DNA from: a virus
Lineage: Duplodnaviria > Caudoviricetes
IMG/VR virus record: IMGVR_UViG_3300036797_000054
Location: 58,745-122,744 of that record
Length of the DNA: 64,000 nucleotides
Reading direction: 5' to 3' (one strand)
A program made the position numbers and the translations under genes. Within the stretch, counting starts at the first letter, position 1. Every line of letters starts with the position of its first letter. The notes beneath the pieces are model-generated. The model had not been told where the DNA came from and did no database searches. It was given only the letters and a program-made list of their open reading frames with translations. Of the stretch, positions 9,366-59,649 are shown one piece after another.

Positions 9366-9983
9366 ATGCCGCTGCTGGCGCAGCAGGAGTTGATCGAGGT
9401 AGCACCCGAGCGGCACGTCGTCGTGCCCTCGGCGCTGCGCGACGTGGTGGGCTGGTGGGGCATCGACGTGAGCACGCGCCGCTACAACGTCGGCTACGTC
9501 ACCCAGTCGATGGACCGCGGTGTGCACAGCGTGCGCCTTGGCGAGGCGAACGACAACGTGGGCGAGCGGCTCACACGCTTTGCTCGCCAACTGCGGCTGT
9601 TGCTCCAGACGATGCTCGGCGAGGGCATCGCGCCGCCCGCGGTCGTGTTCGTGGAGCATCCCGCGGGCAAGAACGTCGAGCCGGTGCTGTGGTACGCCGT
9701 CGGCACCGCCACGCAGGTCGCCTACGAGACGATCGCCGACAGCTACGGCTACGTGCCGCGCGTTGAGACGATCCCGCCGAGCTCGTGGAAGCTGAAAGCT
9801 GTCGGCCGCGGCAACCTGCCCAAGCCCAAGCGCGAGCGCGGCAAGCCGCGCCCCGAGCTCGACGCCTATCCGGTCTGGCGATGGGCGCGCACGCTCGGCC
9901 TCGCTGAGAATGCGAGCTGGGACGACGCCGATGCCTACGGGATCGCCGAGGCGGCGCGCAGGACAATAGGCATCGCGCCTTAG
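9366..9983 (+). CDS. RuvC-like Holliday junction resolvase
   Basis: GIDVST, VFVEHP, PSSWK and DDADAYGIA acidic motifs. Confidence 0.8.
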   Translation: MPLLAQQELIEVAPERHVVVPSALRDVVGWWGIDVSTRRYNVGYVTQSMDRGVHSVRLGEANDNVGERLTRFARQLRLLLQTMLGEGIAPPAVVFVEHPAGKNVEPVLWYAVGTATQVAYETIADSYGYVPRVETIPPSSWKLKAVGRGNLPKPKRERGKPRPELDAYPVWRWARTLGLAENASWDDADAYGIAEAARRTIGIAP

Positions 9984-9993
9984 CCTCTTCTGC

Positions 9994-10197
9994 ATGACCT
10001 CTCAACGTCCAGCGTTCGGCTCGCTCACGGGCTTGCGCGATCAGGGACTGCCGATGAACATGCGCCCGCAAGACGTGCCCAACGCCGACTTTCTCGGCGC
10101 AGGCACACCCGAGGAACAGGCACAGGCCCAGCGCGACGAAGCTGCCGTCGCCGCGCTGCCGCCCACGCGCATGATCATCGAGTCGCACCTGCCCTAA
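9994..10197 (+). CDS. small hypothetical protein, probably leaderless
   Basis: TAGCCT-N7-ATG. Confidence 0.5.
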   Translation: MTSQRPAFGSLTGLRDQGLPMNMRPQDVPNADFLGAGTPEEQAQAQRDEAAVAALPPTRMIIESHLP

Positions 10198-13908: not shown

Positions 13909-14370
13909 GCCAGCTTGCGCTCGACATGCCGCCGAGCTGCAAGTTCGAGGGCTGCGAGCGGCCCGTGGTCGGATCGTCCACCACGGGCACCGGCCACGTC
14001 TGCCGCGGTCACAACGAGCAGGAGTGGGCGCACGCGCTACGGCGCTACGACCCACGCACGAGCGCAGCGCTCGCTGCTGATGCTCATCGGTCGCTTCGGG
14101 CATGAGCGATCGCCACCAGCAGCTCAGCGCCGACCTCGGGCATTTCCGCGGGCCAGAGGGCGAGCCGATGGTCTACGCCGCCCAGGTGCACCGGCGTTCG
14201 CTCTCGGACTTGTACTACCTCGCTCGCGTCCGACTCGTGGGGCAACCGCAGGCCGGGCTTGAAACGTGCGAGCTCTACGGGCACGAACCGGCAGGGCTTC
14301 GCTGCCAGCGCTGCGGCCAACCTGTTCGCTGAGAACATGAGGACAGAGCGCCGGATTTAGCCTTCGGGGT

Positions 14371-16788
14371 GTGACTGCACGCCCTACGACGATCGCCGTT
14401 GAGGACTTGCAGGATGTGCGGGGACCGTTCGCCGACCGCGATGCGCTGGTCTATGACGAGACGAGCGGCACGTTCATCGGCGCGCGGGGTGGCACCGGTG
14501 ACGGTGAAGCTGGCGCGACCGGCGCGACTGGACCACCGGGCGCGACGGGACCTGCTGGCAGCGGCAGTGCTGGAGCGACTGGAGCGACGGGACCTGCGGG
14601 CAGCAACGGCGCGACCGGGGCGAGCGGCGTCGGCACGGCGGGCGCGACGGGAGCTACGGGGCCGCCAGGCGCGGGCTCGGCGGGGGCCACCGGCGCGACC
14701 GGCCCAGCGGGCGGCGCGGGGGCCACCGGCGCAACTGGCACCGCGGGCGGCGCGGGCGCGACGGGCGCAGGATCTCAGGGGGCGACCGGCGCGACCGGCG
14801 CAGCAGGCACCGTCGGCGCGACCGGCGCGAAAGGGACGACCGGGACCGGAGAAGCAGGCGCGACCGGGGCCACGGGGCCGAGCGCTGCGGGTGCCACTGG
14901 CGCGACTGGACCGGCAGGCGGCGGCGGGGCGACCGGGGCGACCGGCCCCGGGGGTAGCCAGGGCGCGACTGGCCCGGCCGGGAGCGGAGGAGCTGCGGGC
15001 GCGACTGGTCCTACCGGCCCGGCTGGCACACCGGGGGCGACTGGAGCTGGAGCAACCGGGGCGACCGGAGTCGGCGCGGCGGGTGCCACGGGCGCGACCG
15101 GCCCGGCTGGAATTGGCACGGCGGGCGCAACTGGCGCAACTGGCGCAGTGGGCGCTACTGGATCGGCGCAGCCCATGCAGTACGTCGTCACGCGACCCGA
15201 GGAATTCGGCGCGCTGCGCGATGGCGTCGCCGACGACACTGCGGCGATCCGCGCTGCCGTCAATGAAGCTGTCGCCCGTGGCATCGCCGATGGCAGCAAC
15301 TACGCCGAGGTGTGGTTCACGACGGGGACCTATCTGCTCGCGGCCGCGCCGGTGGCAGGCGGCGCAACCAAAGGCAACGCACAGGTCCCGCTTCCCGTCC
15401 TGGCCGAGGCAGGTCCGGGGTTCACGTTGGTGCTCAAGGGCGTCACGGATGCCTCGCCGATCAGCTACTACCTAGCCTCGAACGTCCATCACCGAGGCGT
15501 CCGGCTCAAGACGACGCACGTCGGCGAATTCGGCGAATTCGGTGCGCCGAGCGTAATCGGCGGCCCTACGCCTCAAGGGCTGCCCGGCGGCGCGTACTCG
15601 GACATGCTGGTGGTGGTGGACGGGATCATGGTCGAGGCACCGAAAAACCCGTCGATCATCGGCTTTGACTTTCGCAAGATCGCCGAAGTCAATGTCAAGA
15701 ACGGCGCGGCGCTGGTCGCGGCCACGCCGGAAGAACTGTCGCTATCGCGCCCCTCTAATGAACTTGGGATTGGGCTGTATATGCCGTTGGCGAACAACGG
15801 CAACAACGCCAAGATCGGGAGCTGGACCTGCGAAGGCTTCTACTACGGCCTAGCGATATCCGATCACGTTGTCGCTCAGCGCATCCTCACCGTGTGGACG
15901 AGGTACGGGATGTTCGTCGCCGAACCGGGATTGCATTCGCAGGGCGCGGTAATCCAGTACCTCTCGATCGTCGCCAGCGAACACGGAATTCAGGTGCAGG
16001 CGGCCGAAGGCACGACGTTCCCGCTGGTCATCGACCTGTTTCAGGCCGAAGAAATCGAAACGCACGACATCATTGACACGCAGAACACGTTGGTCGGGCC
16101 GATCGGGTTCAATGAAGGCGAGTTCGGTCATGCGCCCAACCTGCAAGGCGCAGCGCGTGCGCACGTCATCGACCTGAACGCGCCATGGAGCTCGGGCGCG
16201 ACTGGCGCGACGGGGCCAGCCGGTGCGACGGGGGCTGCTGGCGGTGCTGGCGCTACCGGCGCGACGGGACCGGCCGGGACGGGTGGCGCGCAAGGCGCGA
16301 CAGGGCCAGCGGGCGCGAGCGGAGCGACCGGCCCCGCGGGTGGCGCGGGCGCGACCGGAGCTGGCGGCGCTGTCGGGGCGACCGGGGCGACAGGACCGGC
16401 CGGTGAAGCTGGCGCGACCGGAGCGACCGGCGCGGCTGGGGCGACCGGCCCCAAAGGCCCCACCTCGGATCTCCACGCCTGGGCGATGACGTTCGCCGTA
16501 GGTGAACTGCCGGGCATCGAAATCGAGCTACAGGAAGGTGAATCGCTGTCGCTCGTGGCCGTCCGTGTGCGCGGGCTTGAAGGCGAAGGCGAATACGAAG
16601 TCAAGCGCAACGGCACCGCCGTCACATCGCTGAACGCGCTGAAAATGAAAGCGGGCGAAGCCAAACGCACCGAAGCCAACGGGGGCACGCCGGTGACGCT
16701 GGCGTCGGGCGACTACTTCACGCTGAACGTCAAGTCGGTCAGCGGCACCACCAAGGGCATGATCACTCTCGTGGGGAGGCGCACATGA
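14371..16788 (+). CDS. collagen-like protein with central pectate-lyase-like beta-helix (fibre/adhesin candidate)
   Basis: Two Gly-X-Y (GAT-GAT-GPA) tracts flanking [21 protein letters not shown]...F..GTYL. Confidence 0.75.
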
Positions 16789-29092: not shown

Positions 29093-29123
29093 AACGCCCG
29101 ACTAGCGCGGTAGCCTCTTCTGC

Positions 29124-29192
29124 ATGGCGTTGATCGTTCGCCAGCGGACGTGGGGATGGTCGCGGACGTGGGAATGGTCGCGCCAGGCGTAG
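29124..29192 (+). CDS. leaderless 22-aa Trp-rich mini-ORF (MALIVRQRTWGWSRTWEWSRQA)
   Basis: TAGCCT-N7-ATG, identical for 16 nt to the start at 9981; in-frame 18-nt tandem repeat. Confidence 0.45.
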   Translation: MALIVRQRTWGWSRTWEWSRQA

Positions 29193-29273
29193 CCGCCGGA
29201 GGTCGCCCGTTCAAGCCGGGCCGCGCGAGCACATCGCGCGTAGCTCAGTTGGTAGAGCACCGGCGGCTGCGCC
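29186..29273 (+). ncRNA. circularly permuted tRNA-like RNA (YrlA/Y-RNA-like topology)
   Basis: Order: 14-bp stem 5' strand, AGGTC, T-arm GCCCG-TTCAAGC-CGGGC, acceptor CGCGCGA-gcaca-TCGCGCG, TA, D-arm GCTC-AGTTGGTA-GAGC, A, 14-bp stem 3' strand. Confidence 0.85.
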
Positions 29274-29303
29274 GCGCGCTACACTGCCGCCGCTGCTGAT
29301 CGC

Positions 29304-29392
29304 GCGCCCGTAGCTCAGTGGAGAGCACCGTCCCGTTGGCTCCGAAGGCCGCGAAAGGCGGAGGTCGCAAGTGTCGAGGCTTGCCGGGCGCA
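29304..29392 (+). ncRNA. tRNA-like RNA with 24-nt anticodon-loop region and 8-nt T-loop
   Basis: Perfect 7-bp acceptor GCGCCCG/CGGGCGC, D-stem GCTC/GAGC, CCGTC/GGCGG stem, AGGTC, T-stem GCAAG/CTTGC. Confidence 0.75.
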
Positions 29393-29440
29393 TTGACAGC
29401 TTCACTCGTTATGCTGCGGCGCGTGCATCGCACACCGCTC

Positions 29441-29536
29441 GCGCCGGTAGCTCAGTGGTCAAACCTGACCCTCGGGTTGGGGAAGAGCAGCGGTCTTTCA
29501 AGCCGCAGGTCGGCGGTTCGATCCCGCCCCGGCGCA
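29441..29536 (+). tRNA. tRNA with anticodon TTC (Glu) carrying a hairpin insertion in the D-loop
   Basis: Acceptor GCGCCGG/CCGGCGC, anticodon arm GCGGT-CTTTCAA-GCCGC, T-arm GGCGG-TTCGATC-CCGCC; 31-nt D-loop; no encoded CCA. Confidence 0.8.
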
Positions 29537-29581
29537 TCCCCCGTGACGGTGGCGGCCTTGGATCTCTGCCGTCACGGGGGA
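29537..29581 (+). promoter_or_regulatory. 16-bp hairpin between the tRNA 3' end and the pth2 RBS
   Basis: TCCCCCGTGACGGTGG/CTGCCGTCACGGGGGA; 3' arm overlaps GGAGG. Confidence 0.65.
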
Positions 29582-29588
29582 GGGGTCG

Positions 29589-29969
29589 ATGCCTGACCCG
29601 ACGATCCCCATCGTCTACATCGTGTTCAACGGGCCGCTCGGCATGTCGCCGGGCAAGATGACGGCGCAGGCGTTCCAGCTCGCCGAGCGTCTGTTTCGAG
29701 CGGCCGATTCCTACGACGTGCCGATGGGAGAGCGCGTTGACCACCTACAGCGGGTAGGCGCGTGGCGCAAGCACACGACGACGATCACGCGCGTCGCCAA
29801 GACGCCGACGATGTGGGAGCGCGTCAAGGCCGAGGTCGAGGGCGTCGTCATGGTGGACGAGGGCTACACCGAGGTCGAGCCGGGCAGCGAGACGTGCTTC
29901 GCGTCGTGGCCGATGCTGGTGGGCGACGCGCCGAAAATCCTCTCGAACGCCAAGGTGCCGCTGCTGTAG
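29589..29969 (+). CDS. peptidyl-tRNA hydrolase, Pth2 family
   Basis: MSPGKMTAQA...W...DEGYTEVEPGSETC matches the Pth2 MxxGKxxAQ and DxGxT motifs. Confidence 0.85.
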   Translation: MPDPTIPIVYIVFNGPLGMSPGKMTAQAFQLAERLFRAADSYDVPMGERVDHLQRVGAWRKHTTTITRVAKTPTMWERVKAEVEGVVMVDEGYTEVEPGSETCFASWPMLVGDAPKILSNAKVPLL

Positions 29970-42272: not shown

Positions 42273-42345
42273 GCGGGCGTAGCTCAACTGGTAGAGCCCC
42301 GGGCTTTTAACCTGTGGGATGCGAGTTCGACTCTCGTCGCCCGTA
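42273..42345 (+). tRNA. tRNA-Lys(TTT)
   Basis: 73-nt cloverleaf: GCGGGCG/CGCCCGT, GCTC-AACTGGTA-GAGC, loop CTTTTAA, GCGAG-TTCGACT-CTCGT; no CCA. Confidence 0.85.
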
Positions 42346-42532
42346 TGAACCAAGCGCAGCGTGACTACGTGAAACGCGTCGTGGCGTCCAATCCGCACCT
42401 GCTCGTCGTGTGCCACAAGAAGCCCCACGGGCACGTCATCGTGGAGGCCCTCGAACGCCGGGCCAGTCGCCGCGTGACGGTCGGGCTGATCCTGCTCGGA
42501 CCCGACGGCAAGCCGATCGCCACCGAGCGCAG

Positions 42533-42594
42533 TTGACGCCGTGAGCAGCGTTTGATAGCTTGCGCGAGGCAACCGAAGCTACTGGAGGTGCGAG
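42533..42594 (+). promoter_or_regulatory. promoter with operator and leader motif
   Basis: TTGACG-N17-TAGCTT; GCAGCGTTTG in the spacer; GCAACCGA...GGAGG leader. Confidence 0.7.
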
Positions 42595-48500: not shown

Positions 48501-48623
48501 TGTCCGCACCGGATCGGCCACCCCGATCCCGACAGCATGGCGCGCGCGCTCGAATACGACGAGCTCGTCGGCATCGGCGTACATGGCTGCGACGGGTGTT
48601 GCGGAGTGCCGATCCCGCAATGA
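42595..48623 (+). other. run of coupled hypothetical ORFs
   Basis: e.g. 42595-42873, 43258-43539, 43536-43850, 44866-45594, 46432-46689, 46682-47515, 47512-47916, 48345-48623. Confidence 0.6.
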
Positions 48624-48967
48624 TTTTCCGCAAAGACCTTGCCGAAAAGGTCATGGCGGGCGAGAAGACCGTCACGCGCCGCCTGTGCTCGGAGAACAAG
48701 CGCTCGCCGTGGTATCGCTTCGGCTGCCGCTACGAGCGCGGCAAGGAGTTCACGGTCAACCCCGGCCGTGGCATTCCCAACATCGGTCGGGCGCGCGTCA
48801 CGTCATGTGAGCGAGTGCCGATCGACTACCTGATGTTGGACGACGCCCTCGCCGAGGGCTTTGCGTCCGTGACCGAGTTCATGCTGGGCTTCATGGCGAT
48901 CAACGGCTGGAGCAAGTGGAATCCCGACGCTGCGGTCTGGCGCGTCGAGTTCGAGGTCTGCTCGTGA
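48620..48967 (+). CDS. ASCH-domain protein
   Basis: MIF......V.AGEKTVTRR...DA.AEGF....EF...VWRVEF. Confidence 0.8.
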   Translation: MIFRKDLAEKVMAGEKTVTRRLCSENKRSPWYRFGCRYERGKEFTVNPGRGIPNIGRARVTSCERVPIDYLMLDDALAEGFASVTEFMLGFMAINGWSKWNPDAAVWRVEFEVCS

Positions 48968-58332: not shown

Positions 58333-59649
58333 GTGAGCGTGAGAACGATGAAAGTCGCGATCCGTGGCGACGTGGATGAGAAGGCGATCGCGCAGCTCGA
58401 ACGCTGCGCCCGCGCTGGCCGCGCCCCGCTGGCCGCGCAGATGGCCGACGGGCACTACGGCTACTCCATGAGCATCGGGGGGGTGATCGGCTTCCGCGAG
58501 TACGTCTCGCCGTCCTCGGTGGGCTACGACATCGGCTGCGGCAACAAGGCTGTGCTGACGAACTTGACCGTTGGCGAGATCGATGGCGACGTTGGACGCA
58601 TCATGGACGAGATCACCAAGCGCATCGACTTCGGCGGAGGGCCGGGCTACAAGCCGACTGCGGAGCGCGCCGATCATCCGGTGCTCGATGAGATCCGCGA
58701 GGCCGACTACGTGCCCCAGCGCGCGCTCGCCGAGCTCGCCGCAGCCCAGCTCGGCTCGATCGGGGGCGGCAACCACTACGTGGACCTGTTCGCCGACGAG
58801 CACGGCCGCGTGTGGGTCGGCGTGCACTTCGGCTCGCGCGGCTTCGGCCACCGCACCGCCGAGGAATTCCTGACGCTCGGCAAGACGCTCGACATCAACC
58901 GCGAGAACAGCGAGGACATGGACTCGCCTCCGACGCTGCTGCCCATCGAGTCCGGCCTGGGACAGTCCTACGTCGCGGCGATGGAGCTCGCAGGGCGCTA
59001 CGCCTACGCCGGTCGCGATGTTGCGGTCCAGCGCGTGCTCGGCATCCTCGGGGCCGAACCGCTGCACGAGGTCCACAACCACCACAACTACGCCTGGCAC
59101 GAGCAGCACGAAACCGACACCGGCCTGGAGATGCTGTGGGTCGTGCGCAAGGGCGCGACGCCAGCGTTCCCAGGGCAGGAAGGCTTCGTGGGCGCGACCA
59201 TGGGCGAGCCGAGTGTGATCCTCGCTGGCAAGGGCGGCCCGGCCGCATCCATGCTGATGTTCTCCACCGTGCATGGCGCTGGCCGCGTGATGAGCCGTAC
59301 GCGCGCCGCGGGTAAAACGCGCAAGCGCTGGACGTGCAACACTCGCGACTGCAACTGGTTCCAGCCGCCGCGAACGCACAAGCCCGAGGCGTGCCCGTCC
59401 TGCGGCAACACGAGCATGACCAAGCGCTTCGTGAAAATCAGCGAGGGCGAGATCGACTGGTCGCAGACGCTGGCCGGTCTGCGCGCGAGCGGCATCGAGC
59501 TGCGCGGCGGCGCGGCCGACGAGGCACCCCTGGCCTACAAGCGCCTCGATCAGGTGCTCGACGCCCACTCCGACACGATCGAGATCCTGCACACACTGAC
59601 GCCTCTCGGCGTGGCGATGGCGGGTTCGGAGATCGCGGCCGATGACTGA
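58333..59649 (+). CDS. rtcB: RtcB-family RNA ligase with Zn-ribbon insertion
   Basis: DGHYGY, GYDIGCG, GSIGGGNHY, VHFGSRG, HNHHN, RKGAT, HGAGR, DEAPLAYK. Confidence 0.95.
   Translation: MSVRTMKVAIRGDVDEKAIAQLERCARAGRAPLAAQMADGHYGYSMSIGGVIGFREYVSPSSVGYDIGCGNKAVLTNLTVGEIDGDVGRIMDEITKRIDFGGGPGYKPTAERADHPVLDEIREADYVPQRALAELAAAQLGSIGGGNHYVDLFADEHGRVWVGVHFGSRGFGHRTAEEFLTLGKTLDINRENSEDMDSPPTLLPIESGLGQSYVAAMELAGRYAYAGRDVAVQRVLGILGAEPLHEVHNHHNYAWHEQHETDTGLEMLWVVRKGATPAFPGQEGFVGATMGEPSVILAGKGGPAASMLMFSTVHGAGRVMSRTRAAGKTRKRWTCNTRDCNWFQPPRTHKPEACPSCGNTSMTKRFVKISEGEIDWSQTLAGLRASGIELRGGAADEAPLAYKRLDQVLDAHSDTIEILHTLTPLGVAMAGSEIAADD

Follow-up and report, generated by a model that had tools for sequence, protein, structure and literature searches.

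A tRNA–pth2 cassette in a phage genome: a five-armed tRNA(UUC), two non-decoding tRNA-like RNAs and the start of a Pth2 gene

The DNA analysed in this work (hereafter the window) consists of the last 64 kb of G000, a linear IMG/VR virus record of 122,744 bases (IMGVR_UViG_3300036797_000054) that is about 80% complete according to CheckV. Its G+C content is 67%, and nearly all likely genes are located on the plus strand. Three RNAs of transfer RNA (tRNA) shape, termed elements 1, 2 and 3, lie directly upstream of pth2, a gene coding for a divergent Pth2 protein of the archaeal/eukaryotic type (Table 1). This arrangement had been described in a first-pass annotation of the same DNA and was confirmed here, as was the common TA-GCTC...GAGC-A D arm and AGGTC variable loop, which can be read directly in all three RNAs. 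The locus offers three separable points, not one new system: a phage copy of a five-armed tRNA(UUC), a junction between a tRNA and pth2 that recurs in related loci, and an RNA of YrlA shape without a visible Ro60 gene. Of the candidate new system that the annotation had put forward, the RNAs and their link to pth2 are real, but neither the linkage to RtcB nor a remodelling of element 3 by the phage could be upheld, and Pth2 genes among phage tRNA genes have already been described in cluster C mycobacteriophages (PMC5966550) and in jumbo phages (PMC7824862).

Table 1. Features of the tRNA–pth2 cassette and, in the last three lines, of the wider window (positions refer to the window).
Feature	Position	Strand	Evidence and remarks
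Promoter-like -10 TAGCCT, 7 nucleotides (nt), ATG	29111..29126	+	Leaderless-type start; predicted transcription start ~29124
Trp-rich mini open reading frame (ORF), 22 codons (putative)	29124..29192	+	Starts at predicted transcript 5' end
Element 1, circularly permuted tRNA-like RNA of YrlA topology	29177..29285	+	RF02553 41.2 bits over full length; fold z -4.7
Element 2, paralogue of element 3, non-decoding	29304..29392	+	Family model R1 48.1 bits, E 3e-10
Element 3, five-armed tRNA(UUC)	29441..29536	+	Rfam tRNA (RF00005) 61.9 bits, gathering threshold 29; family model R1 104 bits
Hairpin	29538..29582	+	-32.8 kcal/mol, z -3.1; starts 2 nt past tRNA 3' end
pth2, divergent archaeal/eukaryotic-type, 126 amino acids	29589..29969	+	PF01981 26.7 bits (cut-off 23)
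tRNA-Lys(UUU) and 63-codon ORF	42273..42536 (tRNA 42273-42345, ORF 42345-42536)	+	13 kb away; not part of cassette
ASCH domain	~48620-48958		19 kb from cassette
RtcB RNA ligase	58333..59649	+	PF01139 213 bits; 29 kb downstream; context only

Element 3 and its counterpart in the host genus

Element 3 is matched by the Rfam tRNA model above the gathering threshold, and its four stems are all paired. Its D loop measures 31 nt as compared to about 7-11 nt in ordinary tRNAs and holds a 25-nt insert relative to the Rfam model. Located 3' of GGUCAA within this loop is a hairpin of 7 base pairs (bp) with a tetraloop, which constitutes the fifth arm. The anticodon loop CUUUCAA has 7 nt including U33, and the T loop UUCGAUC is canonical. 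In its default mode ARAGORN detected none of the three elements. The Rfam models retrieved element 3 (tRNA) and, below threshold, element 1 (YrlA), while element 2 was missed by the tRNA model. A tRNA-Trp called for element 3 in the intron mode of ARAGORN was rejected; it breaks the D stem and scores far under the Rfam alignment.

A pattern combining the D-loop insert with the CUUUCAAG loop matched five phage contigs and at least 117 genomes labelled Solirubrobacterales, each of the latter with a single 96-nt gene of the element-3 design; 28 distinct sequence variants of this 96-nt tRNA occurred among the Solirubrobacterales matches listed. In taxonomic samples the five-armed tRNA was present in 41 of 61 genomes of one genus, in three of 101 genomes of the family and in one of 151 genomes of the class. 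It is a single-copy chromosomal trait at the level of one Solirubrobacteraceae genus; an order-wide distribution in the host was ruled out by this sampling. The host of the phage very probably lies in or near that genus. Element 3 is the phage copy of the host-genus tRNA, and its D-loop insertion, which the first-pass annotation had ascribed to remodelling, is part of host biology, namely the native form of the chromosomal tRNA(UUC). The host copy has no pth2 nearby. ARAGORN mistakes the D-loop hairpin for the anticodon arm, and its labels for the five-armed tRNA (L146-L265, L132, L137 and L129) were accordingly Pro(GGG), Arg(ACG), Thr(GGU), Ala(GGC) or undetermined; the gene is probably annotated wrongly in the public versions of these genomes, and the misannotation is probably widespread. 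No description of a tRNA with an arm in the D loop was found in the literature searched, including a review of non-canonical tRNAs (PMC7609411).

Conservation of the structure was assessed in 32 distinct phage and host sequences. Of all stem cells, 99.6% were paired; 14 of 28 pairs had changed on both sides, and within the D-loop hairpin compensatory changes were seen at six of seven pairs. None of 500 shuffles reached any of these measures, and slid controls were paired in 36-51% of the cells. On the phage side, all 315 stem cells of 15 RNAs were paired, with compensatory changes at 11 of 21 positions, and the D-loop hairpins differed in sequence in nine of the 15. The argument from intact pairing to selection, which had originally been made for the three RNAs of the window, is thus borne out by the relatives of element 3.

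From G001, a complete genome of the host type, 46 tRNAs were recovered, among them a canonical tRNA-Glu(CUC) but no tRNA-Glu(UUC) with a canonical body. UUC anticodons were confined to the five-armed tRNA and an aberrant tRNA of 71 nt. Because a canonical-bodied tRNA-Glu(UUC) was not found in this genome, the five-armed tRNA is likely to read GAA in the host. Among the codons for Glu, the fraction of GAA is 0.17 in the host sample as against 0.22 for this phage and 0.30 for G082, and usage of AAA is shifted likewise from the host via this phage to G082. The two phage tRNAs with anticodons UUC and UUU are exactly those that read these A-ending codons. G082 is a complete phage genome of 130 kb that is distantly but clearly related to G000 (about 35-40 proteins in common, 28-56% identity); it encodes 26 tRNAs, with the five-armed tRNA(UUC) and a canonical tRNA-Glu(CUC) among them, and no Pth2. 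The 71-nt UUC tRNA of the host-type genome (L305, G001:C1:419040-419110) has a short D loop and an aberrant T loop, CUCGUAC, and the same genome carries three class IIb synthetase genes (PF00152). The phage copy represents a mobile and experimentally handy version of an unusual tRNA design, and it ties the phage to a single Solirubrobacteraceae genus.

Elements 1 and 2

In element 1 the parts of a tRNA follow each other in permuted order. The variable loop (29200-29204), the T arm (29205-29221) and the acceptor stem's 3' strand (29222-29228) are followed, after a loop of 5 nt, by the acceptor 5' strand (29234-29240) and the D arm (29243-29258), and a perfect 14-bp helix (29186-29199 with 29260-29273) closes the structure. 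The minimum-energy fold obtained with RNAfold is exactly this permuted shape, and none of 200 shuffled sequences folded as well. The match to the Rfam YrlA model (E 2.4e-7 in 1.4 kb searched) remains below the gathering score of 69 bits, and false matches of this model to tandem or dimeric tRNAs reached up to 32 bits. The other halves of two tRNAs were not found on either side of element 1, and the 14-bp closing helix cannot come from decay of two anticodon-loop halves. The description of this RNA as permuted and lacking an anticodon stands, but it is not a new kind of RNA, its topology being that of the YrlA-type Y RNAs.

YrlA RNAs are defined topologically by their permuted tRNA-like domain, and the motif GNCGAAN0-1G is their putative contact with Ro60 (Chen et al. 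2014, PMC4201824). YrlA of Mycobacterium smegmatis, whose acceptor stem has 7 bp, is nicked by RNase P and provided with CCA (PMC4201824). On the plus strand between positions 29100 and 29300 the motif was not matched in its 8-mer form, GNCGAANG; the 7-mer form was checked by eye only. A Ro60/TROVE gene was found neither in the 122.7-kb record, of which about 80% is at hand, nor in G001 and 81 genomes of its order, and tblastn with the Rsr protein of G082 gave no match in the record. The phage group is acquainted with the Ro60–Y RNA module, since G082 encodes both a Ro60/TROVE protein and, immediately upstream, a true YrlA bearing the motif (L313/L317, G082:C1:1408-3361). Scans of viral contigs with YrlA-type patterns returned mostly tandem tRNAs and no RNA with a long closing helix like that of element 1, and a T-arm scan of the related loci described below revealed no further permuted elements. 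A YrlA-shaped RNA without Ro60 in phage or host would give the permuted tRNA-mimic scaffold uses beyond the Ro ribonucleoprotein.

Element 2 forms a cloverleaf in which all stems are paired and the acceptor stem equals the family consensus. Its D loop is short, its T loop has 8 nt, and the 24 nt in place of an anticodon loop fold into a long, irregular extension helix (-13.2 kcal/mol); an 8-nt anticodon loop is not present in any of the three elements. The covariance model of the element-3 family aligns with element 2 over its full length; relative to the model, element 2 lacks the D hairpin and has 22 extra nt in the anticodon loop. Its fold is no better than that of shuffled sequence (z -0.6). 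We infer that element 2 is a duplicate that lost decoding. One of the related loci contains an RNA of the same design (L129a), in which a helix replaces the 5' part of the anticodon loop and an A-rich bulge is left; this replacement occurred there independently. A scan of genomes with an element-2-like pattern produced hits in unrelated taxa only.

Pth2 and the junction with its upstream RNA

Twenty-six homologues of the window Pth2 with 46-70% identity were retrieved; all are metagenomic except those of Miltoncostaea oceani and of the NCBI record P0023 (the L131 contig). Relatives of the protein stem exclusively from a large protein collection, contig look-ups and a metagenome scan, and searches of viral contigs, cultured phages and species genomes with protein and alignment patterns yielded no close relatives. 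A profile of 27 homologues matched the structures 1xty, 1wn2, 2zv3 and 1q7s of the PDB (E 1e-6 to 1e-4), and the motifs GK..AQ and D.G.TE..PG could be aligned with archaeal Pth2 structures; the residue after AQ.. is Q in the clade of the window and H in the archaeal enzymes. By these sequence features the gene product is a real Pth2 with predicted hydrolase activity. Cultured phages gave no match to the cassette in blastn or to the window Pth2 in tblastn, for which the protein is too diverged, and nothing was found when the upstream neighbour gene was tried as a synteny handle.

Thirteen distinct loci besides the window were read as DNA. The adjacency observed in the window is kept in 11 of them (linkage read from loci L119-L131), with a tRNA or an anticodon-less tRNA-like RNA directly 5' of pth2. 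Nine of these 11 RNAs belong to the element-3 family, and six of the nine keep CUUUCAA. L121, L123 and L124 have a tetraloop or triloop in place of the anticodon loop; in L129 the extension-helix mimic precedes pth2 and a full five-armed tRNA lies just downstream of the gene. All four anticodon-less mimics have intact acceptor, D and T stems and still abut pth2. An encoded CCA is absent after every member of the family.

In six loci (L119, L120, L124, L128, L129 and L130) pth2 starts with TTG or ATG one base past the discriminator, which leaves no room for a Shine-Dalgarno sequence. Five of these six loci are free of in-frame ATG, GTG and TTG codons upstream of the start; in L129 the tRNA-like RNA contains an in-frame GTG and TTG. 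The MP.P.IP motif at the N-terminus of the relatives aligns with the ATG-initiated protein of the window, which is itself preceded by a Shine-Dalgarno sequence. In the window and in L121, L123 and L125, a spacer of 52-73 nt lies between tRNA and start codon. The spacer of the window folds as a hairpin that extends with its 3' arm into the Shine-Dalgarno sequence GGAGG (29579-29583); the pth2 ATG follows after 5 nt, and no T-run is present behind the hairpin. Similar hairpins in the spacers of the other three loci (57-73 nt) were recognized by eye only. With regard to the processing machinery, the host-type genome encodes an RNase Z (303 bits, cut-off 293).

The upstream end of the cassette is marked by the sequence TAGCCT-N7-RTG, which is present three times in the window (9981-9996, 14358-14373, 29111-29126; 0.24 copies expected). 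Each copy with ATG or GTG coincides with the start of an ORF or mini-ORF, one of them that of an 805-amino-acid ORF at 14371, and a 20-mer at the cassette promoter is common to 9977-9996. This is probably a promoter and start design for leaderless transcripts of this phage. The TAG stop of the mini-ORF falls inside the 5' strand of the element 1 closing helix, and the mini-ORF overlaps an 18-nt tandem repeat (29144-29182; 2.2 copies, 95% matches). This repeat can pair weakly with the acceptor 3' strand of element 1 in an alternative fold of 15.7 bits. A perfect TTGACA and a TATGCT, spaced by only 11 nt, are found between elements 2 and 3 (29393-29415); they may be there by chance or supply element 3 and pth2 with an internal -10.

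Other arrangements were encountered among the relatives. The two most distant Pth2 clades have no tRNA upstream; in one of them (the P0022 clade, L139-L144) pth2 overlaps a GNAT acetyltransferase gene tail to tail, which calls to mind the tRNA-acetylating toxins reportedly reversed by Pth. In Miltoncostaea oceani (CP064357; L122, 3406-4000) there are two minihelices that consist of acceptor stem and T arm and lack both D and anticodon arms. A third copy, which is imperfect, lies 5 nt ahead of the pth2 GTG, and repeated hairpins of about 30 nt are interleaved with the minihelices; RNA ligase, HNH and RlaP genes are located nearby. L131 (WBZU01001121.1, 1165-2432) displays an odd tRNA-like array upstream of its distant pth2, with a type II tRNA-like RNA with an 8-nt loop 26 nt before the ATG and one ARAGORN call with a four-base anticodon. 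In L120, L123 and L128 genes for NAMPT and NUDIX proteins (salvage of nicotinamide adenine dinucleotide, NAD) adjoin the tRNA–pth2 module within large tRNA arrays, a context which suggests counter-defence islands.

Outside the cassette, Pfam matches in the window comprise RecT, a PD-(D/E)XK nuclease, a collagen/beta-helix fibre, a DNA methylase, an AAA ATPase, RtcB and a papain-like protease. As stated in the first-pass annotation, rtcB, an ASCH gene and tRNA-Lys(UUU) are all present elsewhere in the window; they lie 13-29 kb off, and their linkage to the cassette is not shown. RtcB has no match in G082 (G000 proteins as queries, E 1e-8). The discriminator A of the tRNA-Lys (42345) is at the same time the A of an ATG that opens a 63-codon ORF with high G+C at third codon positions and no Shine-Dalgarno sequence. 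Across the phage group, seven of 73 tRNAs have a plausible ORF start within 0-2 nt, compared to 3-4% at random positions; this excess of start codons abutting tRNA 3' ends is suggestive only.

Operon model, alternatives and relation to known systems

We read the cassette, with a probability of roughly 0.55, as a small, separately promoted tRNA–Pth2 operon of a phage of about 125-150 kb that infects one genus of the Solirubrobacteraceae (Thermoleophilia), and in which excision of the tRNA by host RNase P and RNase Z creates the 5' end of the pth2 mRNA. According to this operon model, a single precursor would be transcribed from about position 29124, and the host enzymes would release the tRNA-shaped units from it. 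The pth2 mRNA of the six relatives with tight junctions would be leaderless, starting with UUG or AUG one base past the discriminator and devoid of a Shine-Dalgarno sequence; in the window and the three relatives with spacers it would instead open with a hairpin that protects the 5' end, and GGAGG and AUG would come next. Element 2 may be kept as a processing unit, its 5' cleavage by RNase P also setting the 3' end of element 1. Element 1 itself may be nicked by RNase P and tailed with CCA in the manner of the M. smegmatis YrlA, and would act without Ro60. Pth2 would recycle peptidyl-tRNA or N-blocked aminoacyl-tRNA during infection. The model accounts for the persistence of faultless acceptor, D and T stems in non-decoding mimics ahead of pth2, since processing would make the mRNA end.

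Several points weigh against this model. (i) Promoter, co-transcription and cleavage sites were all deduced from sequence. (ii) RNase Z cutting after the discriminator would leave a leader of one base, and UUG is an unusual start for a leaderless mRNA. (iii) The discriminator of the tRNA-Lys lies within the ATG, and one precursor therefore cannot yield both products there. (iv) In the window, pth2 has a Shine-Dalgarno sequence and an ATG of its own, and the hairpin in front of it, if it acted as a terminator, could uncouple the gene from the tRNAs. (v) The conserved CUUUCAA and the fifth arm are needless for a mere processing signal. (vi) Searches elsewhere gave no homologue of element 1 or of element 2 as such, so that selection on them rests on their internal pairing. 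(vii) A Ro60 gene could lie in the missing fifth of G000.

A bolder extension of the operon model, which we consider speculative and rather improbable, holds that this Pth2 clade depends on tRNA-shaped RNAs in cis. Excision would then operate as a switch that yields a translatable and often leaderless pth2 mRNA and couples Pth2 output to the flux of tRNA maturation, and elements 1 and 2 would be stable, CCA-tailed look-alikes occupying host factors or toxins that grip the acceptor and T arm; the whole would form a new phage module for translation protection around the five-armed tRNA.

Among the alternatives, the least improbable, although still doubtful, is that elements 1 and 2 and the mimics are anti-defence decoys which absorb toxins attacking the acceptor end or the elbow of tRNAs, while Pth2 clears blocked or acetylated aminoacyl-tRNA, the adjacency reflecting shared function. 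Loss of the anticodon with an intact upper body indeed recurs independently, by an extension helix (element 2, L129a) or by tetraloops and a triloop (L121, L123, L124), and the surroundings of some modules, i.e. tRNA arrays with NAD-salvage genes (L120, L123, L128) and, in a distant Pth2 clade, the tail-to-tail acetyltransferase gene, are in line with this idea. Pth is reportedly able to detoxify tRNA-acetylating toxins, to judge from the title of a 2021 bioRxiv preprint. However, no defence target is put forward by this explanation, RNAs without anticodon loops could not bait anticodon nucleases, pth2 is absent next to the host tRNA of this design, and the placement of the start codon exactly one base past the discriminator is left unexplained.

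It appears less probable still that elements 1 and 2 are functionless, decaying leftovers of duplicated tRNA genes and that only element 3 and pth2 matter. Such decay would be consistent with the lack of homologues of either element in the searches, with the aberrant 8-nt T loop and unremarkable fold of element 2, and with the false YrlA matches (at most 32 bits) that dimeric tRNAs produce. Yet all stems of element 2 pair and its insert forms a helix, and element 1 is not flanked by the other halves of two tRNAs. Its closing helix cannot derive from two anticodon-loop halves, and its fold (z -4.7) far surpasses those of shuffled sequences.

We regard as improbable a third explanation, an operator at which Pth2 binds the tRNA-like leader of its own gene and represses translation, comparable to threonyl-tRNA synthetase on the thrS leader. 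Throughout the variants the acceptor and T arms are invariant; they are what tRNA hydrolases would be expected to recognize, and they directly adjoin the start codon. Binding of Pth2 to the leader is putative, however; RNase P and RNase Z will excise a tRNA that is complete and has a conserved anticodon loop, thereby parting it from the mRNA, and in four loci a hairpin of about 50-70 nt intervenes between tRNA and start codon.

Maturation of the RNAs by RtcB, as proposed in the first-pass annotation, is very improbable. The inserts in the D loop and the anticodon loop would be removed as introns, and the permuted RNA would be circularised by cleavage and RtcB ligation; RtcB is encoded in the same genome, element 1 has its 3' half before the 5' half, and the covariation of the D hairpin is also what a structure needed for splicing would display. 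Against this, neither a bulge-helix-bulge nor any other known splice motif is seen in the folds, there is no anticodon loop in element 1 that could be restored, the D hairpin has a fixed length in chromosomal copies across the genus, and RtcB, located 29 kb off, has no match in G082, a phage with the same five-armed tRNA. Protein-spliced tRNA introns are not known from bacteria. Archaeal-type introns were rejected for want of a bulge-helix-bulge, a type III toxin-antitoxin array because no single unit is repeated in the RNAs and Pth2 does not belong to the endoribonucleases, and a role of the tRNA at the start codon resembling that of a transfer-messenger RNA or an internal ribosome entry site because the geometry does not fit. 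Gating of pth2 by a four-base codon does not apply either: the gene has an ATG of its own, its relatives have a TTG or ATG in frame, and none of elements 1-3 has an 8-nt anticodon loop.

The operon model can be set against several known systems. The phage arrays mentioned above likewise contain an archaeal/eukaryotic-type Pth2 gene among tRNA genes, which has been read as serving tRNA recycling or ribosome rescue (PMC5966550, PMC7824862), whereas here one particular tRNA or mimic is physically joined, at its 3' end, to the gene. Element 3 resembles a canonical bacterial tRNA-Glu(UUC) in its CUUUCAA loop, its canonical T loop, its stems of 7, 4, 5 and 5 bp and the lack of an encoded CCA. It departs from this class I elongator tRNA by the 31-nt D loop with the fifth arm, and from tRNA-Glu by a Lys/Arg-like body, with a GCUC/GAGC D stem, a 5-nt variable loop and A73; the augmented D helix of tRNA-Glu is not present.

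Element 1 has the same permuted order as YrlA (RF02553), i.e. helix strand, variable loop, T arm, closed acceptor-like stem, D arm and helix strand, and a 7-bp acceptor-like stem as in M. smegmatis; YrlA RNAs are also known in phages. It differs from YrlA in staying under the gathering threshold (41 vs 69 bits), in lacking the GNCGAAN0-1G motif and in possessing a 14-bp duplex in place of the usual looped Ro-binding module. Moreover, a Ro60/TROVE gene, which for a YrlA would be expected within about 4 kb on the same strand, was not found within 4 kb of element 1, in the record or in the 81 genomes sampled from the host's order. With the permuted tRNA genes of Cyanidioschyzon merolae and the split tRNAs of archaea, element 1 shares the location of the 3' half before the 5' half. 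In those systems a complete, anticodon-bearing tRNA is rebuilt via a bulge-helix-bulge junction; element 1, by contrast, has neither an anticodon loop nor a bulge-helix-bulge, and its 14-bp open helix replaces the anticodon arm.

For the junction itself the closest parallels are tRNA punctuation in mitochondria, the t-elements of plant mitochondria and the mascRNA of MALAT1, in which a tRNA or a minihelix without anticodon abuts an mRNA end. Cleavage signals for RNase P and RNase Z define the mRNA ends in these systems, and the human mitochondrial mRNAs made by tRNA punctuation are leaderless. The present case differs in that it concerns a bacteriophage, cleavage is predicted, and a one-base leader would stay after RNase Z. 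The tight junctions between tRNA and start codon suggest that bacterial viruses, too, use tRNA punctuation to obtain leaderless mRNAs, a principle so far established for organelles.

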